Of a DNA stretch of 64,000 nucleotides, positions 49,540 through 63,731 are shown piece by piece. The DNA is from an uncultured Bacillales bacterium. GTDB lineage: Bacteria; Bacillota_I; Bacilli_A; RF39; UBA660. Below the pieces are notes generated by a model that saw only the letters and a list, made by a program, of their open reading frames with translations, was not told where the DNA came from and made no database searches. The DNA lies in assembly GCA_947648915.1 (NCBI GenBank), contig CANSPQ010000002.1, positions 50 to 64,049 of the forward strand. Direction: 5' to 3'. The stretch's first letter is position 1; the number at the start of each line of letters is the position of its first letter. The position numbers were made by a program, and so were the translations under genes.

Positions 49540-49616
49540 GGACCCTTAGCTCAGTTGGTTAGAGCATCCGGCTCATAACCGGGCGGTCGATGGTTCGAGT
49601 CCATCAGGGTCCACCA
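49540..49616 (+). tRNA. tRNA-Met (CAT anticodon; could be tRNA-Ile2 lysidine type)
   Basis: Cloverleaf with anticodon loop CTCATAA. CCA encoded. Confidence 0.85.
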
Positions 49617-49620
49617 ATAT

Positions 49621-49705
49621 GCAGGTGTGGCGAAATTGGCAGACGCGCTAGACTTAGGATCTAGTGCCTTACGGCATGGGGGTTCAAGTCCCTTCACCTG
49701 CACCA
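49621..49705 (+). tRNA. tRNA-Leu(TAG)
   Basis: Anticodon stem CTAGA/TCTAG with loop CTTAGGA. Long variable arm. CCA encoded. Confidence 0.85.
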
Positions 49706-49711
49706 TATGTT

Positions 49712-49745
49712 TATTAAGCGTTGTGAAACAACGTTTTTTTATTTA
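49712..49745 (+). terminator. intrinsic terminator AAGCGTTGTGAAACAACGTTTTTTTATTT
   Basis: Seen in sequence after the tRNA pair. Confidence 0.5.
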
Positions 49746-49859
49746 ATACAAAAAAGATAGTCTCGTTTTGACCTTGTTTTATATTGTGTTCAATTTTTCT
49801 AACAGTTTATAAAGAGTTTAAAAAAATATCCAAGTTATTATAATCAAAAAATAACCAAT

Positions 49860-50189
49860 CATTCTTTTCGCCACAGTAAAGCATTGCATTTGTTAGAAAC
49901 AGGAGTTAATCTCGTTTACATTAGAAATATATTAGGGCATAAATCAATTACTACAACTGAGATTTATGCAAAAACTAATCCTGAAATAAAACGAAAAGCA
50001 ACCGAAAACAATAGTCAAAGCATCAAAGTCAGTGATAGGTATAGTTCAAAAAATAAGAATGATTTATTAAACTGTTTAAAACCTAGTCGTCAAAAACTAG
50101 GTTTTAAACAGAAAATCATTAGTTATGAAATTTGTTTTGAATTTAAACACTATTCTGATATAAACGCTTCTCTTTTTGTAATTTTTTAA
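49860..50189 (+). pseudogene. tyrosine recombinase (phage integrase) C-terminal remnant
   Basis: HSFRHSKALHLLETGVNLVYIRNILGHKSITTTEIYAKT is integrase box II (R-H-R-Y region). There is an in-frame stop about 20 codons upstream. The N-terminal ~300 aa are absent. Confidence 0.6.
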
Positions 50190-52284
50190 CTAAGGCTTCA
50201 ACAGTTGGAGTTTTATGACTGGCATCTATACTTGCTTCTCTTATAATACTTTCTTGTTCTAAAGTATAGTTATATAATTGCAATGTACGATTTAAACCTC
50301 TTTCATATTTACTTTGTTTGTTAACCGATAAATCTTGAAAAGATGATGTTATAAATTCATGTATTTCGTTAAGTATAATTCTATTATTAAGTTCGCCTAT
50401 TGCTTCAATCTCAATCATTCTATCAGTTACTGAAATTTCATTCAAAGCATGATTAATATATTGACTATTGTCAAATGAAAGACATACTTGAACTCCATTT
50501 TTATCTAACACAACATCAGTTCTTTTTGTGCGAGAATTTAAAATCGGAAATTTTAAAATTTCTTCAAAATTTACTGCAACATTTGATTCAATCATTTTTT
50601 GTCTAAAAGTTTCAAAATTATCATCTGGTAAATTTTCTTCAATTTCACTTCTAGAAGAGTATACCTCCCCCTTTTCAAGTGGCATTTTACATGTGGCTTT
50701 TATTTTTTCTTTACCATTTTGTTCAACTTTTCGTATTCTTAATGAACCACCATTTTTATACAAATCTAAATTCATTGTATCATAGTATTCATCATTATTT
50801 TGTTTTTTTGTTGTTCTAACTACTTTAAAACCCTTTGATACAAAAACAGATATGATTTGATTCAGTAATGTGTCTTGATCTAATATATTAGATTCTTTAA
50901 AATTATCTCCTACAATATACTTTAATTCAAATTCTTCTGGCTTTTTATTTAATTCTTCTATCATCTTTCTTACCTCACCATCATATTTTTTAAAATCTTC
51001 TACATTCAACCCAAGTTCTATCCTTAATAATTCAGGATTAAAGAATATATAACTATCTTCTAATACCTCTTGTGGTCTTATCAAATTAGTACATTCTGTT
51101 AAATCCATTATTCTATTACCGTTTTGAATATTTAATTTTTGCTCTTTCTTATATAATTTAGTTTTTGTTCCAATACTTACAATTGAAAGTGTACTATCTA
51201 AGTCGATATCTCCAAATATTTCTTTTAATCTACTTTTTATTTTATCAATTGAAATATCATTATTTATTAAAATATAATCACTAATATTACTAAAATCACA
51301 TAGATATGACATAATAAAATCCAAATTTATTTTAGCTAAAATGTCAAATGATTTTTTAAAATCTTCATCTTTCATTTTAAGAAAATCATTTAAATTCCTA
51401 ACTCTTGGATCAGATGATAACGTTTTAAAACTATTTGAAACGGGTACTCTATGTAAAATGGTAGAATTCCTATATCTTTCTATTATTTTTTCGAATATAT
51501 AATCTCCCAAAACAGAAACTGGACTTAAATAAACATCTCTATACATTTGATATCTTTGTAGCAAAACATTTTCTATACCAGCTAATCCTTTTCTATTAAT
51601 TAAAAGTTCATATTCTTGATTGTTATTGACCACAACATTCAAATTTGAAATAATTCGTTTTAAATCTATTGCTGAAGCAATGCCAACATAATAAGAATCA
51701 CGAAGTAAATAATCAATTCTATCTGCATCTAACTGATAGGAAACAAGATTATTAAGTAGTTTTGTAAAACTATCTTTTCCTAATTCATCTTTATCATTAA
51801 TCTCAGCTATAAAACTTGCAATTTTTTTTACTTTTTGTTTTCCAAAAAGTTTTGTTATCACTTGATTCACTTCTGTATCTCCAAGTAATATATCTGTAGT
51901 TCTTTTTTCATGTGAATAATTTGTTACCAATTCTAATGAATGAGAAAATGGTCCATGCCCTATATCATGCAATAACATAGAACATAAAGCAATGTCTTTA
52001 TCATCTTTGCTAAGTTCTATATTATAGTTTTTTAATATTTCTTCTAATCTTTTTAAAAATAAAGACATAACATAAAAAGCACCTACACTATGACTTAATC
52101 TATCATTTTGTGATAATTCCTTAAATTCTAATTGTGAAAAACCATTTTGCGAAATACCTGATAATCGTTGCATTTCTTTTGTTAAGATTATTTCAGAAAA
52201 TGGATATGATACAATTATCTTTCCATAAATTGGATCTTCCACGATTAATGATTTATCTTTGTTTTCAATACATACAAATGCCAT
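50143..52284 (-). CDS. HD-domain (dGTPase/SAMHD1-like) phosphohydrolase fused to a C-terminal CYTH domain. Real start at 52284 after GGGAGG.
   Basis: LLHDIGHGPFSHSLE and DADRIDYLLRDS in the N-terminal half. EFELKY (ExExK) CYTH tunnel motif in the C-terminal half. Confidence 0.6.
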   Translation of the reverse strand: MAFVCIENKDKSLIVEDPIYGKIIVSYPFSEIILTKEMQRLSGISQNGFSQLEFKELSQNDRLSHSVGAFYVMSLFLKRLEEILKNYNIELSKDDKDIALCSMLLHDIGHGPFSHSLELVTNYSHEKRTTDILLGDTEVNQVITKLFGKQKVKKIASFIAEINDKDELGKDSFTKLLNNLVSYQLDADRIDYLLRDSYYVGIASAIDLKRIISNLNVVVNNNQEYELLINRKGLAGIENVLLQRYQMYRDVYLSPVSVLGDYIFEKIIERYRNSTILHRVPVSNSFKTLSSDPRVRNLNDFLKMKDEDFKKSFDILAKINLDFIMSYLCDFSNISDYILINNDISIDKIKSRLKEIFGDIDLDSTLSIVSIGTKTKLYKKEQKLNIQNGNRIMDLTECTNLIRPQEVLEDSYIFFNPELLRIELGLNVEDFKKYDGEVRKMIEELNKKPEEFELKYIVGDNFKESNILDQDTLLNQIISVFVSKGFKVVRTTKKQNNDEYYDTMNLDLYKNGGSLRIRKVEQNGKEKIKATCKMPLEKGEVYSSRSEIEENLPDDNFETFRQKMIESNVAVNFEEILKFPILNSRTKRTDVVLDKNGVQVCLSFDNSQYINHALNEISVTDRMIEIEAIGELNNRIILNEIHEFITSSFQDLSVNKQSKYERGLNRTLQLYNYTLEQESIIREASIDASHKTPTVEALVKKLQKEKRLYQNSV

Positions 52285-52607
52285 AAATAACCTCCCTAAA
52301 CAAATTATACAATAAATTGACACATTTTTAAATACCTCTTTATTACAATTCAGAATAAAAACATGAAAAATAAAACATGCATACGATAAGGTATTATAAA
52401 ATGATGGTAAAATGAGATTTTGAAATAAAAAATTGATTAACAAAATATTAAATATATTGGAAAATATAACTATATAGTTAATCATATATAAAATTAAAAT
52501 AGTATCTTGGGTGTAATAAATGAACCACCTCGCCGCAGAGCAGACGGGTATCACAAGGTTTATTATCCATAATTCGTTGCAAGCAGCGGGGAATTAAACC
52601 CCTAACA

Positions 52608-52640
52608 ATTAACAGTTCACTGAACTGTTAATTGTTTTGA
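52608..52640. repeat. perfect 16-bp-stem palindrome AACAATTAACAGTTCA-c-TGAACTGTTAATTGTT within a GC-richer structured segment
   Basis: Seen in sequence. Adjacent GGGGAATTAAACCCC hairpin. No U-run on either strand. Confidence 0.6.
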
Positions 52641-52747
52641 TTAAAAAATGGTAATTTTTATATTTTAAATTTCCAAATTGATAGTCCTACCATGCACAAA
52701 CTAGGACAGAGCGATAGTTTACAAAAATAAAAAGCGTTTTACGCTTT

Positions 52748-53167
52748 TTATTTTTGTATCATATTTAACAAATTAATTTTAAAGATGTCTTTATCAGAAT
52801 GTTCCTTAGAGACCATAACACCCTTATAAGTAATTAACTCAGATTGGTGTCCTTCTGATAATATATCAACTGGTTCCAATTTATCTAACATAATAATTTT
52901 TTCTTGTTCATATACAATATAATATAATTCGATTGCACCATGCACTTTTGCAAATAACATATCTGTAGGTAACTTTAATTTATAGGTAACTGTTCCATTT
53001 GATTTATTAGTAGAGATTACTTCTCCTAAAAATTGCCCTTCTTTTAAACTTGGATAATACTCAAAATACAGTTTTTTATACGCTAACATATTGTATTTTT
53101 TTAAGGAGCGTTCTAACTTATGAAATTCATTTTCATTGATATAATCGAATAAATAAGTTTCTTTCAT
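52748..53167 (-). CDS. hypothetical protein
   Basis: 139-aa ORF. Confidence 0.35.
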   Translation of the reverse strand: MKETYLFDYINENEFHKLERSLKKYNMLAYKKLYFEYYPSLKEGQFLGEVISTNKSNGTVTYKLKLPTDMLFAKVHGAIELYYIVYEQEKIIMLDKLEPVDILSEGHQSELITYKGVMVSKEHSDKDIFKINLLNMIQK

Positions 53168-53263
53168 ACAACGCCTCCTATTCTACTATATTCAAATTAT
53201 AGCATTCCCTACTAGAAAAGTCAAACAAAGATAACAAAAAAAGGTAGTTTACGCTACCCTATT

Positions 53264-55435
53264 TTACATTTTTACTTTTGTAGAAATATCATACATTTCA
53301 GAATCTGCTAGTAACATTTCATCATTTGGAATATGAAACATAATCGTATCTAATACTGCTCGCATTGCTCTTAACTGTAATAAATTAGATGCAACTGGTT
53401 CAAAATGTGTTTCAATTTCTATATAATCATCCTCGATAATTACTTCATCTTCCACTTCTACCCCAACTGTCGAATCATCTACCGGAACATAAGTTGTATT
53501 CTCCTCTACACTTGGCGTTGGCGTTGGAGCCGGAGTTGATTCTTGTGGTGCAGTAACATTTGTATTATCCTCTTTGTATCCTTCTTCTGAAACAGATTCC
53601 TGAGTATCTACTGTTTGATTTTCTACAGGCTCGAAATATGTTGTAGATTGGGAAGAATTGCTATTTTCAAAAGCTATTCTATCAGCATCTCCTACAGAAT
53701 ATCCTGACTCATAACCAGATAAATAATCTGTTGAAGTAGATGCTGGATTTTTTTCCCAACCATGATTTCCATGCGTATATCCAAGTTGAAATCCAGCTGT
53801 ATATTCAGCAAAAGAATCTACTACATTCCCATTTAAATCGCCGATCGTATGAGGTGCGTTTTGTTCAAATTGTTGCACAACAGCAACTTTATATTCTTCT
53901 TGAATTTGTTCTGGTGTTTTTCCAGTTGGATCAACACCTACACTTTCAATTTCCTCTACAGATACTTCAACTTCTTCTCCTGCTTCTGTTTGCATAGGAA
54001 CAGAAGGAACTATTTGTTGAGATGTACCCCTACCTACATATGATGAGAAGGTAGGATTTTCTACAAACGGATAATCTAAAATACAATCTTGTACACCATT
54101 ATAGATTTCCCACTCTACTTGGTTTCCTGTTAATATTTCTAAATCGGAAACGTTGAATAAATCTTGGTCACGATATTCTCTTGCATAAGCTAACTTATCA
54201 TCTAACATTTCGCGAAGAGAAGTTTCAGCTTGCGCTCTTTCGCTCTTATTTTTCTCTCCTGTTGGAGCAATAGCATTACAATTATATAAATCTTCACACA
54301 AGACATTTGTTAAATCATACGGTAAACCATTTGGTAATTTTTCATCAATTGCCAAGGCCATTCTACCTACCATTTCATAAGTAGCACGTGTATATAGGCG
54401 TCCATCTTCTAATTTAAAGTTGTATTCTAGAAAAGTTATAATTTCCCTTTCTAAATCTCTTTTTTCAGATGTGCTTTCCGCAACATTATATTGCGCAACC
54501 AATGACTGAATATGCATCAAAACTTCTGCACTATCTTTATCGGCAATAATCAAATCATATGGTATCATTGTATCTGGAGTTACTGTTAAAGTATCCTCTG
54601 CAAATTGATTCATACAAAATTGATAATTATCTATTATGGATTGTGATGTTTTGTTAAAATACTCCAAACGTGCATAATCCATAGGATCAATCTCTTCTAA
54701 ATTTACAACTAAATAGAAATCCATAAATTTGCGAATAGAATCTTCTGATGAGAAGTCCACACCACAAGGACGATTTTCTAATATAAAGGAAATTGACTGT
54801 GCAATCATAGCTTTATTATCATTGACATCAAATGATAGATAAGAAGGCAATATATTTTCTTGCACTGGTACTTCTTTATTGGCATTGTCTTCTATATCCT
54901 TTATCACTTCTTGATCCATGTGATGAATGTTAGAATCATCTTGATTAAAAGCCATATTTTCTTTTAGTTCAATTATTTTAAGAGATGTTGCCTTTGTTGC
55001 AAACCCAGCTATTGTAAAAGCTACAAGACTTAGACCTCCTGCAACAAGTTTAAAATGTTTTCCAGAAAACTTATTATGAAAAATCCTCTTTCCGCTTTCT
55101 TTATTGATTTGATGCATTAGCTTATCGAGTCTCTTTTTTTCTTTTGCACTCACTTCTCTTGTATCTGATTCAACTTCTTCCATTGTTTCTTGTTCTATTG
55201 TTACGTCTTTTGATTCAAACATATATACATTTTTTGAAATCGAATCAATTGTACTACATAAAGTATGTTTTTCTTGTTCAGAAACCTTACTTTTATTTAC
55301 CGTATCTTTAAGTTCCTTAGCTTGACGCTTTATTGTAGCAGGACTTAATTTCTCTGTTTCTATCTCTGATTTAAACATATTAATGAATCTCAGAAGTTCA
55401 TCATGATTAAATTCTTCTATTTTCATAAACCTCAA
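53264..55435 (-). CDS. hypothetical large protein with central TM segment and acidic, Thr/Pro-rich C-terminus
   Basis: 723-aa ORF. TM segment FKLVAGGLSLVAFTIAGFA. Confidence 0.4.
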   Translation of the reverse strand: MRFMKIEEFNHDELLRFINMFKSEIETEKLSPATIKRQAKELKDTVNKSKVSEQEKHTLCSTIDSISKNVYMFESKDVTIEQETMEEVESDTREVSAKEKKRLDKLMHQINKESGKRIFHNKFSGKHFKLVAGGLSLVAFTIAGFATKATSLKIIELKENMAFNQDDSNIHHMDQEVIKDIEDNANKEVPVQENILPSYLSFDVNDNKAMIAQSISFILENRPCGVDFSSEDSIRKFMDFYLVVNLEEIDPMDYARLEYFNKTSQSIIDNYQFCMNQFAEDTLTVTPDTMIPYDLIIADKDSAEVLMHIQSLVAQYNVAESTSEKRDLEREIITFLEYNFKLEDGRLYTRATYEMVGRMALAIDEKLPNGLPYDLTNVLCEDLYNCNAIAPTGEKNKSERAQAETSLREMLDDKLAYAREYRDQDLFNVSDLEILTGNQVEWEIYNGVQDCILDYPFVENPTFSSYVGRGTSQQIVPSVPMQTEAGEEVEVSVEEIESVGVDPTGKTPEQIQEEYKVAVVQQFEQNAPHTIGDLNGNVVDSFAEYTAGFQLGYTHGNHGWEKNPASTSTDYLSGYESGYSVGDADRIAFENSNSSQSTTYFEPVENQTVDTQESVSEEGYKEDNTNVTAPQESTPAPTPTPSVEENTTYVPVDDSTVGVEVEDEVIIEDDYIEIETHFEPVASNLLQLRAMRAVLDTIMFHIPNDEMLLADSEMYDISTKVKM

Positions 55436-55462
55436 CCCTTCCTCATTCTATATTAAAGTATA

Positions 55463-56932
55463 TTATTTTTCTCGTTTTTGACCAGAATACTCATATTTAT
55501 CATTTAATAATTTCGTATCATTATAAGTACTCCATTTTTTATCTTCTTTAATAGAAGTTACATATTTTCTTTTTTTATAACTGTAAGTTTTTACTTCTTT
55601 TGTTTCATAAACTGGTGTTTTTGTTGTAGTTGTTTCATATCCAGTAATTTTCTTTACTTCTGTTGTAAGTGGTATTGTTTGATATACTGGTTCAACACAC
55701 TTATATTCGGATAAATTTTTTGTAGATAATTTCCATACTTTATAGATTCTACCAACAGTAGAAGTACAATTGTTTGGACAACTTTCATCTACAAAACGAA
55801 CAAATTCATATTTATAACCCGCTTGATTTGGTTTTTCATAGAACGTTTGTGTTCCTACATAAACCCATTGATCTCCTGTGGCTGTTTCTCCTGTAGATAC
55901 GTAATCATATTTGTTACATGTTAAAATTGTTTCTGTCCCAATAGTCTTAACTTCAGTAGAATAAATTGGTTTAGACTTATCTGTTGCAGTTGTAACATTA
56001 TATCCTACCAAGACTTTTTGTTTAGTAGTTTTGGTACGAACAGCTGTATATTGGTCTGCTTGTACAGGTGTTGTAGAATATTCTGACCAATCACTTTCTT
56101 CCCAGTGACTGTTGTCAATTTTCTTAACATATTCCCATTCATATTCCTTTTCAGGATCTTTTGGATCCTCTGGATCAGTAGGTTTATCTGGCTTGTCTGG
56201 TTCAACTGGTTTCACAGGTGGATTAATTACCACATTGTTATTGGTTACATTATTGTTAATCGTTGTATTGTTATTGGTTACATTATTAATGGTAGTATTA
56301 TTTACAACTGGTTTTGTTTCAACTGGTTTCGTTGGATAAACAACTGGTTGTTTTACATCACTTGTTTGCTTTTCACAAATGGCTGTTTGACAGTAATCAT
56401 AACATCCCATATATACTAATAAATAGTTTTCTTGTTCAGCACATTTTAAATTAACCTTCATAACAAATTCATTTTCATGTTTTGCTACTTCAACATAAGA
56501 GTCAACTAAATCACATTGTTCCCCATCACGATCAACAAAAGGTAAAATAATCTTTTGATTTAACATTTCCCCTAATGTCATTTTAACAGTTTCTCCAACC
56601 GTTTTAGGTAATCTCTCAGTTGTATAATAAGATTTTGCTGCATCCTTCATTGCGACAACATTATTATTGAAGATTTGATCATAAAAAACAGCAACATTGT
56701 TCTCTTTATTGATTCCATTAATTGCATTCTTTAAATCACTCTTCATTGGAAATAGCCATATTAAAATAAAGATAAATAAGGCTACAAATAAGAATTGTAT
56801 CATTACATTTCTTATTGAAAAATTATTTGTTTTTTCTTCATACATATAAATTCCCCCTCCGTTTATGCCCTGTATAATAGCATAAAACCTATTATTTGTC
56901 AAATGCAAACAAAAATAACCAAAAATTAACAA
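55463..56932 (-). CDS. hypothetical membrane-anchored surface protein with Asn/Thr-rich low-complexity region
   Basis: N-terminal TM segment. NNTTINNVTNNN and PVKPVEPDKPDKP tracts. Confidence 0.4.
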   Translation of the reverse strand: MLIFGYFCLHLTNNRFYAIIQGINGGGIYMYEEKTNNFSIRNVMIQFLFVALFIFILIWLFPMKSDLKNAINGINKENNVAVFYDQIFNNNVVAMKDAAKSYYTTERLPKTVGETVKMTLGEMLNQKIILPFVDRDGEQCDLVDSYVEVAKHENEFVMKVNLKCAEQENYLLVYMGCYDYCQTAICEKQTSDVKQPVVYPTKPVETKPVVNNTTINNVTNNNTTINNNVTNNNVVINPPVKPVEPDKPDKPTDPEDPKDPEKEYEWEYVKKIDNSHWEESDWSEYSTTPVQADQYTAVRTKTTKQKVLVGYNVTTATDKSKPIYSTEVKTIGTETILTCNKYDYVSTGETATGDQWVYVGTQTFYEKPNQAGYKYEFVRFVDESCPNNCTSTVGRIYKVWKLSTKNLSEYKCVEPVYQTIPLTTEVKKITGYETTTTKTPVYETKEVKTYSYKKRKYVTSIKEDKKWSTYNDTKLLNDKYEYSGQKREK

Positions 56933-59095: not shown

Positions 59096-59707
59096 TTAAT
59101 CTATTTCAAAATGAGCAACAACCTCATTAATCATATCATCTAAGTCAGCTTTACCATCATTTATCATTACTTTAAATTTTTCTTTCCTACACTGCCTCTC
59201 TATTTCTTTAGAAAATAGAAAATCTCTCTCCATCCAATTTTGAAATGCCTTTGCTTTATCTGAACATCCACTTAGCATTTTAGGAACATATTCTCTTTTT
59301 TTATAATGAAATATTTGAAATTCTTTTGTTGGAATTATCGCTAAATACATATTATCTGCAATACCTAATTCTTTCATTAATGATGGAATATAAGCACATC
59401 CTTCCGTAATAATATTCTTATCACAATTTATCTGTTCTAATTCCCTTATTATACTATCAAATATTTCCTTGTATATACCAAATTCTTCATTTTTTTGTAT
59501 TATAGGATCTCTCATCCATATTTCTTCATTTGTCATAGATAAATTTTCTTTACACAATGATTTGCCATTTAATGCCGCCATCTTCATATATTTATCTAAA
59601 TAATCATCAACCTTAAAATAATATAAATTATATTTTTTAGCAATAATTTCACATATTGTACTTTTACCAGCACAGGGAGAACCACCTACAAAATACACTT
59701 TTTTCAT
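59096..59707 (-). CDS. P-loop kinase-like protein
   Basis: Walker A GGSPCAGKST. Confidence 0.4.
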   Translation of the reverse strand: MKKVYFVGGSPCAGKSTICEIIAKKYNLYYFKVDDYLDKYMKMAALNGKSLCKENLSMTNEEIWMRDPIIQKNEEFGIYKEIFDSIIRELEQINCDKNIITEGCAYIPSLMKELGIADNMYLAIIPTKEFQIFHYKKREYVPKMLSGCSDKAKAFQNWMERDFLFSKEIERQCRKEKFKVMINDGKADLDDMINEVVAHFEID

Positions 59708-60113: not shown

Positions 60114-60620
60114 TTATTCTATTTCTTTTAACATTTGTTGTTTTAATCTATCTATATCAGTAAAAAATAAATTTGTTCCTCTTTTCTTTAATCCTAACAT
60201 ATTTTTAAATAAACTTTTTATTTCATTTTGTAGGTCAGTTGGAACCTTTAAAGGAACTCCATCTACTGTATGCACATGATCTATATATTTTTCTAATGTT
60301 GGAAATGCATTTTGAAGTAATATTGCAGCATCTTCATCAGCTATTTTTCTAATTATAATTGTATTACAAAAACCATATTTTTCTATTTTTTTATCAATTA
60401 TTTTTTGATATTTTTCTACTTTAGAACTTATGGGAATAAACCATAATATTTCCTTATCTTTAATAGTAAAATAAGTTGGTCTTTTCTTACCTTTTTCATG
60501 GTTTTGCATTAAATTCTCATCATTTACAACATCAAAATATTCATCTTTTATGTGATATAAATAGCCTGTTTTAATATCCATGTGCATCATCTCCATAATT
60601 AATATAATACCATAAAGCAA
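60114..60620 (-). CDS. type III toxin-antitoxin toxin, ToxN/AbiQ family endoribonuclease (probable start at MDIKTG)
   Basis: About 155-168 aa. KRPTYFTIKDKEILWFIPISSK matches the ToxN/AbiQ core pattern (RP.Y....I......LW..P.SS.K). Upstream architecture matches type III TA. Confidence 0.55.
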   Translation of the reverse strand: MLYGIILIMEMMHMDIKTGYLYHIKDEYFDVVNDENLMQNHEKGKKRPTYFTIKDKEILWFIPISSKVEKYQKIIDKKIEKYGFCNTIIIRKIADEDAAILLQNAFPTLEKYIDHVHTVDGVPLKVPTDLQNEIKSLFKNMLGLKKRGTNLFFTDIDRLKQQMLKEIE

Positions 60621-60650: not shown

Positions 60651-60668
60651 CTACATTTTCAACCAGGA

Positions 60669-60766
60669 TCATTTATTAGTCGCACCACCTGGAAGCGAAA
60701 AACATTGTCGCCTGGAATCACTTATTATTCGCACCATCCAGAAGCGAAAAACATTTTCACCACTTT
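60669..60766 (-). ncRNA. ToxI-like antitoxin RNA: 2 tandem 49-nt repeats
   Basis: tcatttattagtcgcaccacctggaagcgaaaaacattgtcgcctggaa versus tcacttattattcgcaccatccagaagcgaaaaacattttcaccacttt. Preceded by the promoter TTGACA-17-TATATT at 60782-60810. Confidence 0.5.
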
Positions 60767-60963: not shown

Positions 60964-62079
60964 TTAATTATCATCTATCCATATTTTTATTTTATGATTA
61001 CAATATACAGGACCATCATAAACTATTGCCACACTATCAACTGCTCTACTCAATGCTACATATATGGCATTCTTTGTAGATGACGTTTCAATTTTTTTAT
61101 TTGATTTTATATATTGTTTTAAATCAGCTGTTGGATAAATTATAGTTCTTGCAAAAGTACAGCCCTTTGAATTCTTATAATTTATACTTTTATAATAATC
61201 ATTAACTTTAGTTTTTTTATTATATCGTAATTGAATAGGTTTATATTTTGATAAGTATTTATTAAGATTTGATGTCCTAACAATAAATATGCCTTGTGAT
61301 TCTTTACTTGGAATATCGATACTTTCTAAATCCCCATATTCTGGATAAAAATCATTTAAAAAATCAACTATATATTTATGACATCTTCTACAAATATTCA
61401 AAGATGTTTGATCAATTTCAAATTTTGTTTTTTTGCATTCAGTACTTACGAATTTATCTATTTTTCCATTACTATATTTATCATACTTTGAATCGCAATG
61501 CGTGTTGTAAATATTTTGTCTTGGATCACCAACAATTATTAAATCACTATCTAAATCTGAAAATTCTTTTATTATTTCTAAATCATATCCTACCATATCT
61601 TGTACTTCATCTATAAATATTTTATTAAAGATACTTGTAATTCTTTGAAATACTAATCCTTTTGATGCTTTATTTATTCTTAAAACTAATTTTGCCAGTT
61701 TATCAGTATATATCCTATTATGATTATCAAAATAATACTTATCAAAGTCTTTCTCTCCATAATAAACTGGAAATCCACTATTACTATTAAATCTTAATCC
61801 AGATTTTCCTTCAACAAAATTAATCCCATTCACTTTTGCTATATTTAAATCTCGCTTATATGGCATTATACCATGTTCTAATAAAAAAGAAAACCATGTT
61901 TGAACTATGATATTTTTAGGAATATACCCTTTATTATCTATTATTTTGTCTTTTATTTCATCTCGACATCTAATAGTAAAAGTTGTAATTAAAACTCTAC
62001 CAGACTCTTTTAATGCTTCTTCCACTATGTAGGTTGTCTTTCCTGTACCAGCGCCAGCTAACAATAATTTATTACTCAT
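60964..62079 (-). CDS. UvrD-like helicase core (GajB-like), short form
   Basis: Walker A AGAGTGKTT. Motif II FIDEVQD. GDPRQ. VALSRA (motif VI). 4-bp overlap with the upstream OLD-family gene. Confidence 0.55.
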   Translation of the reverse strand: MSNKLLLAGAGTGKTTYIVEEALKESGRVLITTFTIRCRDEIKDKIIDNKGYIPKNIIVQTWFSFLLEHGIMPYKRDLNIAKVNGINFVEGKSGLRFNSNSGFPVYYGEKDFDKYYFDNHNRIYTDKLAKLVLRINKASKGLVFQRITSIFNKIFIDEVQDMVGYDLEIIKEFSDLDSDLIIVGDPRQNIYNTHCDSKYDKYSNGKIDKFVSTECKKTKFEIDQTSLNICRRCHKYIVDFLNDFYPEYGDLESIDIPSKESQGIFIVRTSNLNKYLSKYKPIQLRYNKKTKVNDYYKSINYKNSKGCTFARTIIYPTADLKQYIKSNKKIETSSTKNAIYVALSRAVDSVAIVYDGPVYCNHKIKIWIDDN

Positions 62080-63731
62080 TTTATTGCTTCCTCAATATAC
62101 TCTGGAAATTTTATTTTTTCTGTTGTGTCAAAAATTTTTAATGCACATTCAGTCTTATTGGAAACCATATATTTAATTAACTCATCATCAGATTCTTTAT
62201 TTAAACCTAAAATACTATTTAATGTCGCTAAGTCATTTGCTCGTAAAATACAAGGTTCTAGTGTATCGTAATTAAACTTCCCACCATTTTTAGATTTTAA
62301 GTCTCCTTGGTCAATATGTGTATTCTTATCATACTGAATTTTTACATAATGCTTCTCATTATTGCCTAAGTAATTTTCATATTTTTTGTTCAGTGCTTCT
62401 ATATCGCCATCATTATCAGTAACAACAACAGTATTCTTTTTTATCAAATCAGCAATTTCTAGAAATCTAAGAAATGATGTTCCTACAGATATAACGTCAA
62501 TTTCATCTTCTATAGGTAAATTATTATACTTATCGATATATGCTTTTTGAACAACTAATTCATCAGCATCTCCTTCGACCAAAATAGCCTTTTGACATAA
62601 CAAAAATCTTAAGGTATCATACCCTGGTTTCTTCATAAAAAAATTAAATGTTTCTTTGCTCAAAGTTGTAAATTTTGTATAATCATTTTCATTTAGTAAA
62701 ATCAAATTTTCTAAATTAAGTTTGTTTGCAACAAAACTACTATGTGTAGTTATAAAAATTTGTTTGTTTTCATTGACTTTAACTATTTCGTTTAAAAGCT
62801 TACTCATCTTAGGATATGATAAATGGTTTTCTGGTTCTTCTATTAATAAAACAGATGCCAAATCAGCATTTTTACTATTTAAAGACAACTCAATTTTAAC
62901 TGCTGATTGAATACCTTTTCCTATAAACTCAAACGGAATAGAATTTATTTTTGTTATTATACTTTTTTCCCAATCATTTGATTTTAATGATTCAACATCT
63001 ATTTGAACTGTAGTGTTTAATATATGTGTATTTTTACTAAGCTTTTCATTTATATCTTTCATTAGTTTGTTCGTAATAAAACTATCTTGAACATCACGAT
63101 ATAATTGCGAAATACCAATTACTTCAGATTTTTCTAAGTTATCTCTCACTATTTTAGATACATAAGAATCAGAACTATTTCTTAAGTTACACTCTGATGT
63201 GTCTATTATTGTTGACTTTGTTGGAGTTGTTCTTCCTGTTATATCAACACCAGCAGAATTTTTCCAACTAACTGTGTAATATTCAATTGGTAATGAGTAA
63301 ATATCACCCGTACTTATATATAATTGATACTCTTCTTCAAATTTTGAATCAAACTCTATTGTGTATGAAACACAGCCTACATTTTCACCATCACTATTTT
63401 CTTTTCCTAAAATAATTGGATCACATTCTTCAAAATACAATTCTATAAAACATTTTGGTAACTTAGTTGTCTTATCTGTTTTTATATTTTTTAAATAATC
63501 TTGAACGCTATTATTATTAAAAATATCTTGAACTAAATTGTTTTTTAAGTATTTGCCTCTAAAAAAACCAGTAAGGCATAAGTGAATAGCTTCTAATATA
63601 GTTGATTTGCCAACATCATTAATTCCAACCAAAACATTTAATTTACTATTGAATTTTATTTCATAATCACCAAAACATTTAAAATTTTTAATTTTAATTT
63701 TACTAATGTACACAAGCTCACTTCCTAACAA
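62076..63731 (-). CDS. OLD-family ATP-dependent endonuclease (ABC ATPase plus TOPRIM), GajA-like
   Basis: N-terminal Walker A GINDVGKST. ABC signature region. C-terminal TOPRIM ILVEGDADE. Confidence 0.65.
   Translation of the reverse strand: MLGSELVYISKIKIKNFKCFGDYEIKFNSKLNVLVGINDVGKSTILEAIHLCLTGFFRGKYLKNNLVQDIFNNNSVQDYLKNIKTDKTTKLPKCFIELYFEECDPIILGKENSDGENVGCVSYTIEFDSKFEEEYQLYISTGDIYSLPIEYYTVSWKNSAGVDITGRTTPTKSTIIDTSECNLRNSSDSYVSKIVRDNLEKSEVIGISQLYRDVQDSFITNKLMKDINEKLSKNTHILNTTVQIDVESLKSNDWEKSIITKINSIPFEFIGKGIQSAVKIELSLNSKNADLASVLLIEEPENHLSYPKMSKLLNEIVKVNENKQIFITTHSSFVANKLNLENLILLNENDYTKFTTLSKETFNFFMKKPGYDTLRFLLCQKAILVEGDADELVVQKAYIDKYNNLPIEDEIDVISVGTSFLRFLEIADLIKKNTVVVTDNDGDIEALNKKYENYLGNNEKHYVKIQYDKNTHIDQGDLKSKNGGKFNYDTLEPCILRANDLATLNSILGLNKESDDELIKYMVSNKTECALKIFDTTEKIKFPEYIEEAIK

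Follow-up and report, generated by a model that had tools for sequence, protein, structure and literature searches.

We analyzed a 64,000-nucleotide (nt) stretch of DNA from an uncultured Bacillales bacterium (contig CANSPQ010000002.1; hereafter, the window), which carries a gene for a protein with an N-terminal HD domain and a C-terminal CYTH domain. This mobile gene has an HD–CYTH architecture that is uncharacterized, though catalogued before. With a rough probability of 0.55, it encodes a bifunctional nucleotide-degrading enzyme in which the HD domain would release inorganic triphosphate (PPPi) and the CYTH domain would cleave it. The fusion, including an ExExK motif (EFELKY) at the start of the CYTH part, had been proposed from the letters of the sequence (the original prediction) and is supported on both halves by Pfam, AlphaFold2, and Foldseek.

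The N-terminal half of the protein matched the Pfam families HD (amino acids 63–166) and HD_assoc_2 (amino acids 206–278) above their gathering scores. In a sequence search of the PDB, the best solved relative was the deoxynucleoside triphosphate (dNTP) triphosphohydrolase EF1143 from E. faecalis (2o6i, 3irh, 4lrl; E = 4e-30), with BT4208 (2q14), Aquifex O67745 (2hek), and SAMHD1 as further solved relatives. An AlphaFold2 model of the full-length protein, built from 82 sequences, had a predicted local distance difference test (pLDDT) score of 87.8 and a predicted template modeling (pTM) score of 0.79. Foldseek comparison of the ~440 N-terminal amino acids retrieved EF1143 at E ~2e-20 with a template modeling (TM) score of 0.74–0.78; the TM scores for 4lrl, 2o6i, 2q14, and 2hek spanned 0.74–0.81, and those for SAMHD1 were 0.65–0.70. 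By Foldseek and the HD_assoc_2 match, the whole catalytic-core fold is present, including the HD-associated lobe.

Conservation within the family follows the same lines. Residues R62, H65, H106, D107, H110, H115, E118, H125, D186, D188, Y192, R195, and D196 are invariant among 82 family members, and the pattern is also kept in 150 representatives of clusters at 50% identity, except that Y192 is replaced by Phe in a few. The H...HD...D metal site and the equivalents of SAMHD1 R164, H210, H215, H233, and Y315 are all present. The window protein thus shares the ~440-amino acid fold and all metal-binding and catalytic residues with EF1143, the YwfO-type enzyme of B. subtilis, and the core of human SAMHD1, from which we infer an HD domain of this type with predicted dNTP triphosphohydrolase activity. 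The expected chemistry is the conversion of a dNTP to a deoxynucleoside and PPPi, the latter being the established product of EF1143/SAMHD1-type enzymes. Three features set the window protein apart from these relatives: identity is only ~22–36%, a 268-amino acid CYTH domain is added at the C terminus, and Asn replaces the Leu of the KQLG motif. This residue, N47 (codon at ~52144–52146), corresponds to L150 of SAMHD1, and the hydrophobic gate residue is thus absent. Proteins of the closest subfamily have Asn, Thr, or Cys at the gate position, whereas distant fusions and proteins with HD alone have Leu there. In SAMHD1, L150 shuts out 2'-substituted sugars, according to PMC5207538.

The C-terminal half matched Pfam CYTH (amino acids 484–610; E = 5e-8) above the gathering score, and its ExExK motif, at amino acids 451–456 (E451-F-E453-L-K455), is invariant. 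That this half folds as a CYTH domain was borne out by an AlphaFold2 model of amino acids 440–713 (pLDDT, 86.9; pTM, 0.84), in which β-strands extend across model residues 12–190 and a plug-type helix spans model residues 220–243 (protein residues 659–682). The top Foldseek match was E. coli YgiF with tripolyphosphate (5a60; E = 5e-10), followed by SaTTM, HpAC1, and AtTTM3; YgiF, SaTTM, and AtTTM3, with E values from 5e-10 to 1e-7, are tripolyphosphatases solved with tripolyphosphate bound. Class IV cyclases (3n0z and 2fjt; E ~1e-5) and thiamine triphosphatases were placed lower in the list. The domain resembles YgiF, N. europaea NeuTTM, S. acidocaldarius SaTTM, and A. thaliana AtTTM3 in its eight-stranded tunnel fold, its C-terminal plug helix, and its ExExK, small-xRxR, and ExE motifs. 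It differs from them in its fusion to a predicted PPPi-producing enzyme (YgiF has a CHAD domain in place of the HD partner) and in extra helical inserts and a tail, and its identity to the solved structures is 14–19%. Residues E451, E453, K455, S514, R516, R518, K533, R545, E547, R588, D605, E625, E627, and R662 are invariant in the 82 members.

Functional classes of CYTH proteins have been tied to sequence motifs by Vogt et al. (2021, PMC8233210). Cyclases need HFxxxxExExK, a small residue for the first Arg of xRxR, and ExA; thiamine triphosphatases carry W/YxRxR; and triphosphatases carry small-xRxR together with ExE. The corresponding segments of the window protein are LNKKPEEFELK, which lacks HF four residues ahead of ExExK, S514-L-R516-I-R518, in which both Arg residues are kept and Ser514 occupies the position that is aromatic in thiamine triphosphatases, and E625-I-E627. 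Because LNKKPEEFELK, SLRIR, and EIE fit the published rules, the domain is predicted to belong to the triphosphatase class and to be neither an adenylyl cyclase nor a thiamine triphosphatase. The archetypal activity of this class is the hydrolysis of tripolyphosphate (PMC3440374, PMC4641920, PMC8233210).

The HD–CYTH fusion is shared by a large family: the same architecture is found in over 100 clusters (90% identity) that are 50–89% identical to the window protein, although the exact window protein had no entry in the gene-position collection. Their hosts are uncultured gut Bacilli, "Tenericutes," and Clostridia (gut Firmicutes), and the proteins are named merely "HD domain-containing" or "CYTH domain-containing" protein. 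An exhaustive search, with representatives clustered at 50%, extended HD–CYTH proteins (~680 amino acids) down to 28% identity. It also recovered HD–HD–CYTH relatives of ~1,500 amino acids, in which two tandem SAMHD1-like HD domains precede the CYTH domain (P0141 and P0144; ~1,450–1,570 amino acids), and HD–CYTH–CYTH relatives of ~910 amino acids (P0132 and P0135). The repeated fusion of HD and CYTH domains, in at least three architectures, argues for their functional coupling. The same two-domain combination was listed in 2002 by Iyer and Aravind, as cited in PMC8233210; as far as the literature searched shows, it was only catalogued. In the literature collection that we searched, no paper characterized an HD–CYTH fusion and none joined triphosphate tunnel enzymes with dNTP triphosphohydrolases. 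The original prediction did not recognize the fusion as a characterized system, which holds as far as characterization goes, although the architecture itself was already on record.

In a subset of loci (Table 1), a gene for a 243–247-amino acid protein with a helix-turn-helix (HTH) domain of the HTH_3 (XRE) family followed by a CYTH domain lies 4–15 bp upstream of the HD–CYTH gene. In one of these (L040), the CYTH part carries the triphosphatase-type motifs EMEIK, SLRLR, and EIE. The HTH_3–CYTH protein may be a triphosphate-sensing regulator. No such partner gene was found in the window (tblastn, E > 3).

Comparison with related genomes showed how the gene came to lie in the window. Close relatives were found through a protein-database search with the neighboring CysK; a metagenome scan with CysK gave nothing closer than 63% identity. 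One relative, L130, from a 162-kb contig, has ~80–82% DNA identity to the window and is collinear on both flanks: GT2, VanZ, and genes for 488, 670, and 139 amino acids on one side, and tRNA-Leu, tRNA-Met, cysK, cysS, the Tad pilus locus, and murC on the other. Between the 139-amino acid gene and tRNA-Leu, L130 has 392 bp that are unrelated to the 3,012 bp at this site in the window, and it lacks the fusion there. The 3,012-bp insertion contains an integrase remnant, the HD–CYTH gene, and, upstream of the latter, 434 bp of AT-rich DNA with a structured GC-rich element. The break coincides with the last base of tRNA-Leu, and a closer relative (L127, 94% identical) diverges there as well, at 49705. 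L130 lacks the gene, and the break falls exactly at the 3' end of tRNA-Leu; the fusion gene is therefore no housekeeping gene kept at a fixed position but cargo, brought in by horizontal transfer on an element that had integrated at tRNA-Leu and has since decayed.

The tRNAs and the integrase remnant named in the original prediction were both confirmed. The remnant covers positions 139–170 of the 172 in the Phage_integrase profile (E = 4e-5) and scores 23.9 bits, short of the gathering score (27.1); it is only generically similar to the integrase beside the fusion in locus L013 (37% over 38 amino acids). The GC content of the insertion is 25%, vs ~31% for the window. DNA similarity to all other HD–CYTH loci ends 37–52 bp beyond the open reading frame (ORF), at 50106 on the 3' side. 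No direct repeat (att) matching the tRNA-Leu 3' end was found in 49.5–64 kb or in 52285–52800, and the far border of the insertion is set by the comparison with L130 alone. Three unrelated sequences lie directly 3' of tRNA-Leu(TAG) in three related genomes (49705/49706 in the window, L127:1–187, and L130:9318–9709), which marks the site as a recombination hot spot. The GC-rich element (52505–52650, ~130 nt) has a stable predicted fold on both strands (z ~-3.8); on the plus strand, its last part is a 15-bp hairpin with a U-run behind it. Neither Rfam nor the other loci gave a match, and the sequence could represent a small RNA or something left over from the mobile element.

The start of the fusion gene had been placed at the ATG at 52284, preceded by GGGAGG, with the ORF track judged to be over-extended, and this assignment proved right. 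GGGAGG lies 7–12 nt 5' of the ATG, the stop codon ends at 50143, and all homologues begin at the aligned Met ("MAF..."). An 803-amino acid ORF with a GTG start is an artefact, ruled out by this common Met. The gene has its own promoter-like site; a 13-bp hairpin, after which no clear U-run was seen, lies 3' of it; and the upstream 139-amino acid gene is closed by an 18-bp palindromic terminator. Because of these three signals, the HD–CYTH gene looks monocistronic, a self-contained cassette that would be transcribed alone.

These features suggest a two-step reaction. By homology, the HD domain would hydrolyze deoxynucleoside or ribonucleoside triphosphates [(d)NTPs] to nucleoside and PPPi; judging from fold, motifs, and fusion, the CYTH tunnel domain would then act as a tripolyphosphatase and convert PPPi to pyrophosphate and phosphate. 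PPPi chelates metals strongly and is probably an inhibitory product; its cleavage would take it away and make the depletion irreversible. The biological role could be to control the (d)NTP pool or to clean it up, possibly including a SAMHD1-like restriction of phage DNA synthesis. Product removal is the simplest reading because a predicted PPPi producer is fused to a predicted PPPi hydrolase in an arrangement that is conserved and arose more than once. It also bears on an older question: PMC3440374 proposed that CYTH tripolyphosphatases serve in "metabolite proofreading," with an unclear source of PPPi for which its authors could suggest only polyphosphate breakdown. Several points weigh against product removal. 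Both enzyme activities are predictions, family-wide. Stand-alone CYTH proteins of 215–250 amino acids exist (L034, L035, P0137, and others), so that a CYTH domain can function without an HD partner. With Asn at the gate, the substrates of the HD domain may not be limited to dNTPs. Finally, CYTH enzymes can also cleave NTPs and longer polyphosphates, and the motifs do not separate these activities from PPPi cleavage.

The CYTH domain could instead be a regulatory triphosphate sensor, or hydrolyze another substrate (NTPs, thiamine triphosphate, long polyphosphate, or RNA 5'-triphosphate ends), gating or complementing the HD enzyme. SAMHD1 and EF1143 require allosteric nucleotide activators, which would suit such an arrangement, as would the HTH_3–CYTH gene just upstream in many relatives, where a CYTH domain is part of a probable ligand-sensing regulator. 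CYTH substrates are moreover diverse (PMC8233210). The full two-metal catalytic set (ExExK, RxR, and ExE) is nevertheless invariant, which a pure sensor would not need; the thiamine triphosphatase motif is absent; and the top structural matches are tripolyphosphatases. We therefore consider a sensor or other hydrolase improbable. Far less credible still is a CyaB-like class IV nucleotidyl cyclase, with a protein that makes or degrades a cyclic-nucleotide signal: CYTH proteins are frequently annotated as adenylate cyclases and two cyclases do appear in the Foldseek list, but all three cyclase signatures are missing, and the "nucleotide-signaling effector" of the original prediction, insofar as it implies cyclase activity, is contradicted by the motifs. 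The gene could also be the clade's housekeeping YwfO/EF1143 orthologue, vertically inherited at a fixed locus and carrying an extra domain. Several species do show stable, ordinary chromosomal neighborhoods, and the window shares with L001 and L015 the side on which RNase HIII, CvpA, and thioredoxin are found. The gene is absent from this site in syntenic L130, however, and L127 diverges here too; proteins at least 86% identical occur in at least five different contexts, and in several loci the gene adjoins relaxases or recombinases. A fixed housekeeping orthologue is for these reasons quite unlikely.

Whether the protein defends against phages is a question of biological role and is compatible with PPPi removal as the mechanism. 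As a dedicated single-gene system, it would empty the dNTP pool on infection, as SAMHD1 and the defense dGTPases do, with the CYTH domain in support. The surroundings give this idea some footing. In the window, the gene is strain-specific cargo at a tRNA, adjoins an integrase remnant, is low in GC, and behaves as a stand-alone cassette. The closest homologue (89% identical) is flanked by Wadjet JetABCD, a Mob_Pre relaxase, and a serine recombinase; a 75%-identical homologue is beside SIR2-HerA, a methylase/helicase pair, and Mob_Pre; and in L013, a tyrosine integrase is 2 kb from the fusion. A check of co-occurrence with defense islands gave a mixed answer: 4 of the ~16 contexts read gene by gene, window included, had mobile-element or defense hallmarks, as a raw count, and the rest were ordinary. 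The ordinary contexts included PHP/LysR/two-component system; pcrA-ligA; secA, uvrA, and murD; ftsZ and uridine kinase; gmk, rRNA methylase, and pseudouridine synthase; and murC and relA, and a NUDIX/PHP/CoaE/EzrA locus with the fusion is stable in 17 contigs. PADLOC returned only scattered matches among 142 pooled neighbor ORFs (counted without locus resolution), and the ten neighbors of L011, L013, and L016 gave no defense matches. The protein itself is recognized by no PADLOC or NCBIfam defense model, the sub-threshold matches being to the HD motif only. The anti-phage dGTPases (Tal et al. 2022; NCBIfam NF041026; PADLOC dGTPase) are HD-superfamily proteins as well, and depletion of dNTPs is the shared idea, but they are of the Dgt type, a different HD family, and the window protein reached just 19–21 bits (19.1 bits for NF041026, against a cutoff of 400 and family cutoffs of 383–400; the PADLOC dGTPase model matched at E = 3.6e-5 over 64 amino acids only). 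It is thus no member of the anti-phage dGTPase family. Searches of phage and plasmid collections (tblastn) and a pattern scan of IMG/VR found HD-only housekeeping homologues and no fusion, and a fold search of BFVD found viral HD-only and CYTH-only proteins. The Gabija system and CptIN-like module of the window, moreover, belong to a separate variable region. On balance, a dedicated anti-phage system is a tentative possibility, ahead of the other alternatives and well short of probable, whereas release and cleavage of PPPi by the two fused domains is the reading we prefer.

Table 1. Features of the HD–CYTH gene, its insertion site, and the second variable region (window coordinates unless a locus is named)
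Feature	Coordinates	Strand	Basis or remark
tRNA-Met	49540-49616		
tRNA-Leu(TAG), integration hot spot	49621..49705	+	
Strain-specific 3,012-bp insertion	49707..52718		Comparison with L130 and L127
Tyrosine recombinase C-terminal remnant, including the catalytic-Tyr motif region	49884..49985	+	Pfam Phage_integrase
Terminator-like hairpin, 13-bp	50076..50107	-	Begins 36 nt past the stop codon; z-score -4.3
HD–CYTH fusion gene	50143..52284	-	Intact ORF, 713 codons + stop; homologues share start and architecture
CYTH/triphosphate-tunnel domain with plug helix and C-terminal helical tail, amino acids 446-713 (predicted)	50146..50949	-	Pfam, Foldseek, motif rules
EF1143/SAMHD1-type HD triphosphohydrolase core, amino acids 1-445 (predicted)	50950..52284	-	PDB sequence search, Foldseek, invariant residues
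Ribosome-binding site GGGAGG	52291-52296	-	Sequence match
Promoter-like site TTTAAA-17-TATAAT	52304..52332	-	20 nt upstream of ATG; consensus match only
P-loop kinase-like ORF	59096-59707		Weak Zeta_toxin and AAA_18 matches
CptN-family type III toxin, 168-amino acid ORF	60114-60620	-	PDB 4rmo, E = 3e-20
Two tandem 49-nt repeats upstream of the CptN toxin	60653-60750	-	
GajB, Gabija	60964-62079	-	PADLOC, E = 3e-118
GajA, Gabija	62076-63731	-	PADLOC, E = 7e-185
HTH_3–CYTH partner loci	L011-L014, L019, L040, L045, L132-L135		Including L040:9250-9987, L045:7255-7986, L132:7266-7997

The remaining genes around the insertion fall into conserved and variable parts. ORFs of 139, 723, and 489 amino acids on the minus strand (52748–56932) had no Pfam or PADLOC match and lie outside the insertion, since all are conserved in L130; judged by eye, the translated 723-amino acid ORF seems to contain a hydrophobic stretch that may span the membrane and to end in an acidic tail of low complexity. 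On the far side of the tRNAs, ~39.2–46.0 kb (minus strand) holds a Tad/Flp pilus locus, identified by collinearity with annotated L127 and L130 and comprising Flp, TadE, a CpaE-like ATPase, a T2SSE ATPase, and two T2SSF proteins. The second variable region (~58.9–64 kb) corresponds to L130:1–3300, where L130 has Abi_2, ParB_N, and HTH genes instead. The same site thus holds different defense cargo: the kinase-like ORF, the CptIN-like module, and Gabija in the window, and Abi_2 in L130. The Gabija system is complete (60964–63731). The CptN-type ORF was not recognized by Pfam or PADLOC, and the 49-nt repeats upstream of it probably form a CptI-like antitoxin RNA. Gabija and the toxin are 7.8–8.7 kb from the fusion gene, with five L130-conserved genes between. 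The fusion is therefore not next to ToxN and Gabija, as had been stated, the toxin being of the CptN family. Its placement inside a defense island is likewise overstated, since Gabija and CptN belong to a separate region beyond the five conserved genes. The defense interpretation in the original prediction is supported in part only.

The structures of NeuTTM, YgiF, and AtTTM3 are well described, and the HD–CYTH fusion offers a concrete, testable answer to where the PPPi comes from. In the broadest interpretation, which we regard as speculative and unlikely, the fusion would be the first genomic evidence for SAMHD1-type enzymes as the physiological PPPi source of bacterial CYTH tripolyphosphatases, its mobile copies would be a new anti-phage system in which a single gene depletes nucleotides, the gate change from Leu to Asn might widen the substrates to ribonucleotides, and the HTH–CYTH protein would be a PPPi- or triphosphate-sensing repressor. 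If neither the PPPi-source nor the phage reading holds, the protein would be an ordinary, uncharacterized enzyme of nucleotide metabolism. If mobile copies do restrict phages, a SAMHD1-type enzyme would join the bacterial nucleotide-depletion defenses, distinct from the Dgt-type dGTPases, and would show that cells using up their dNTP pool must also get rid of triphosphate.

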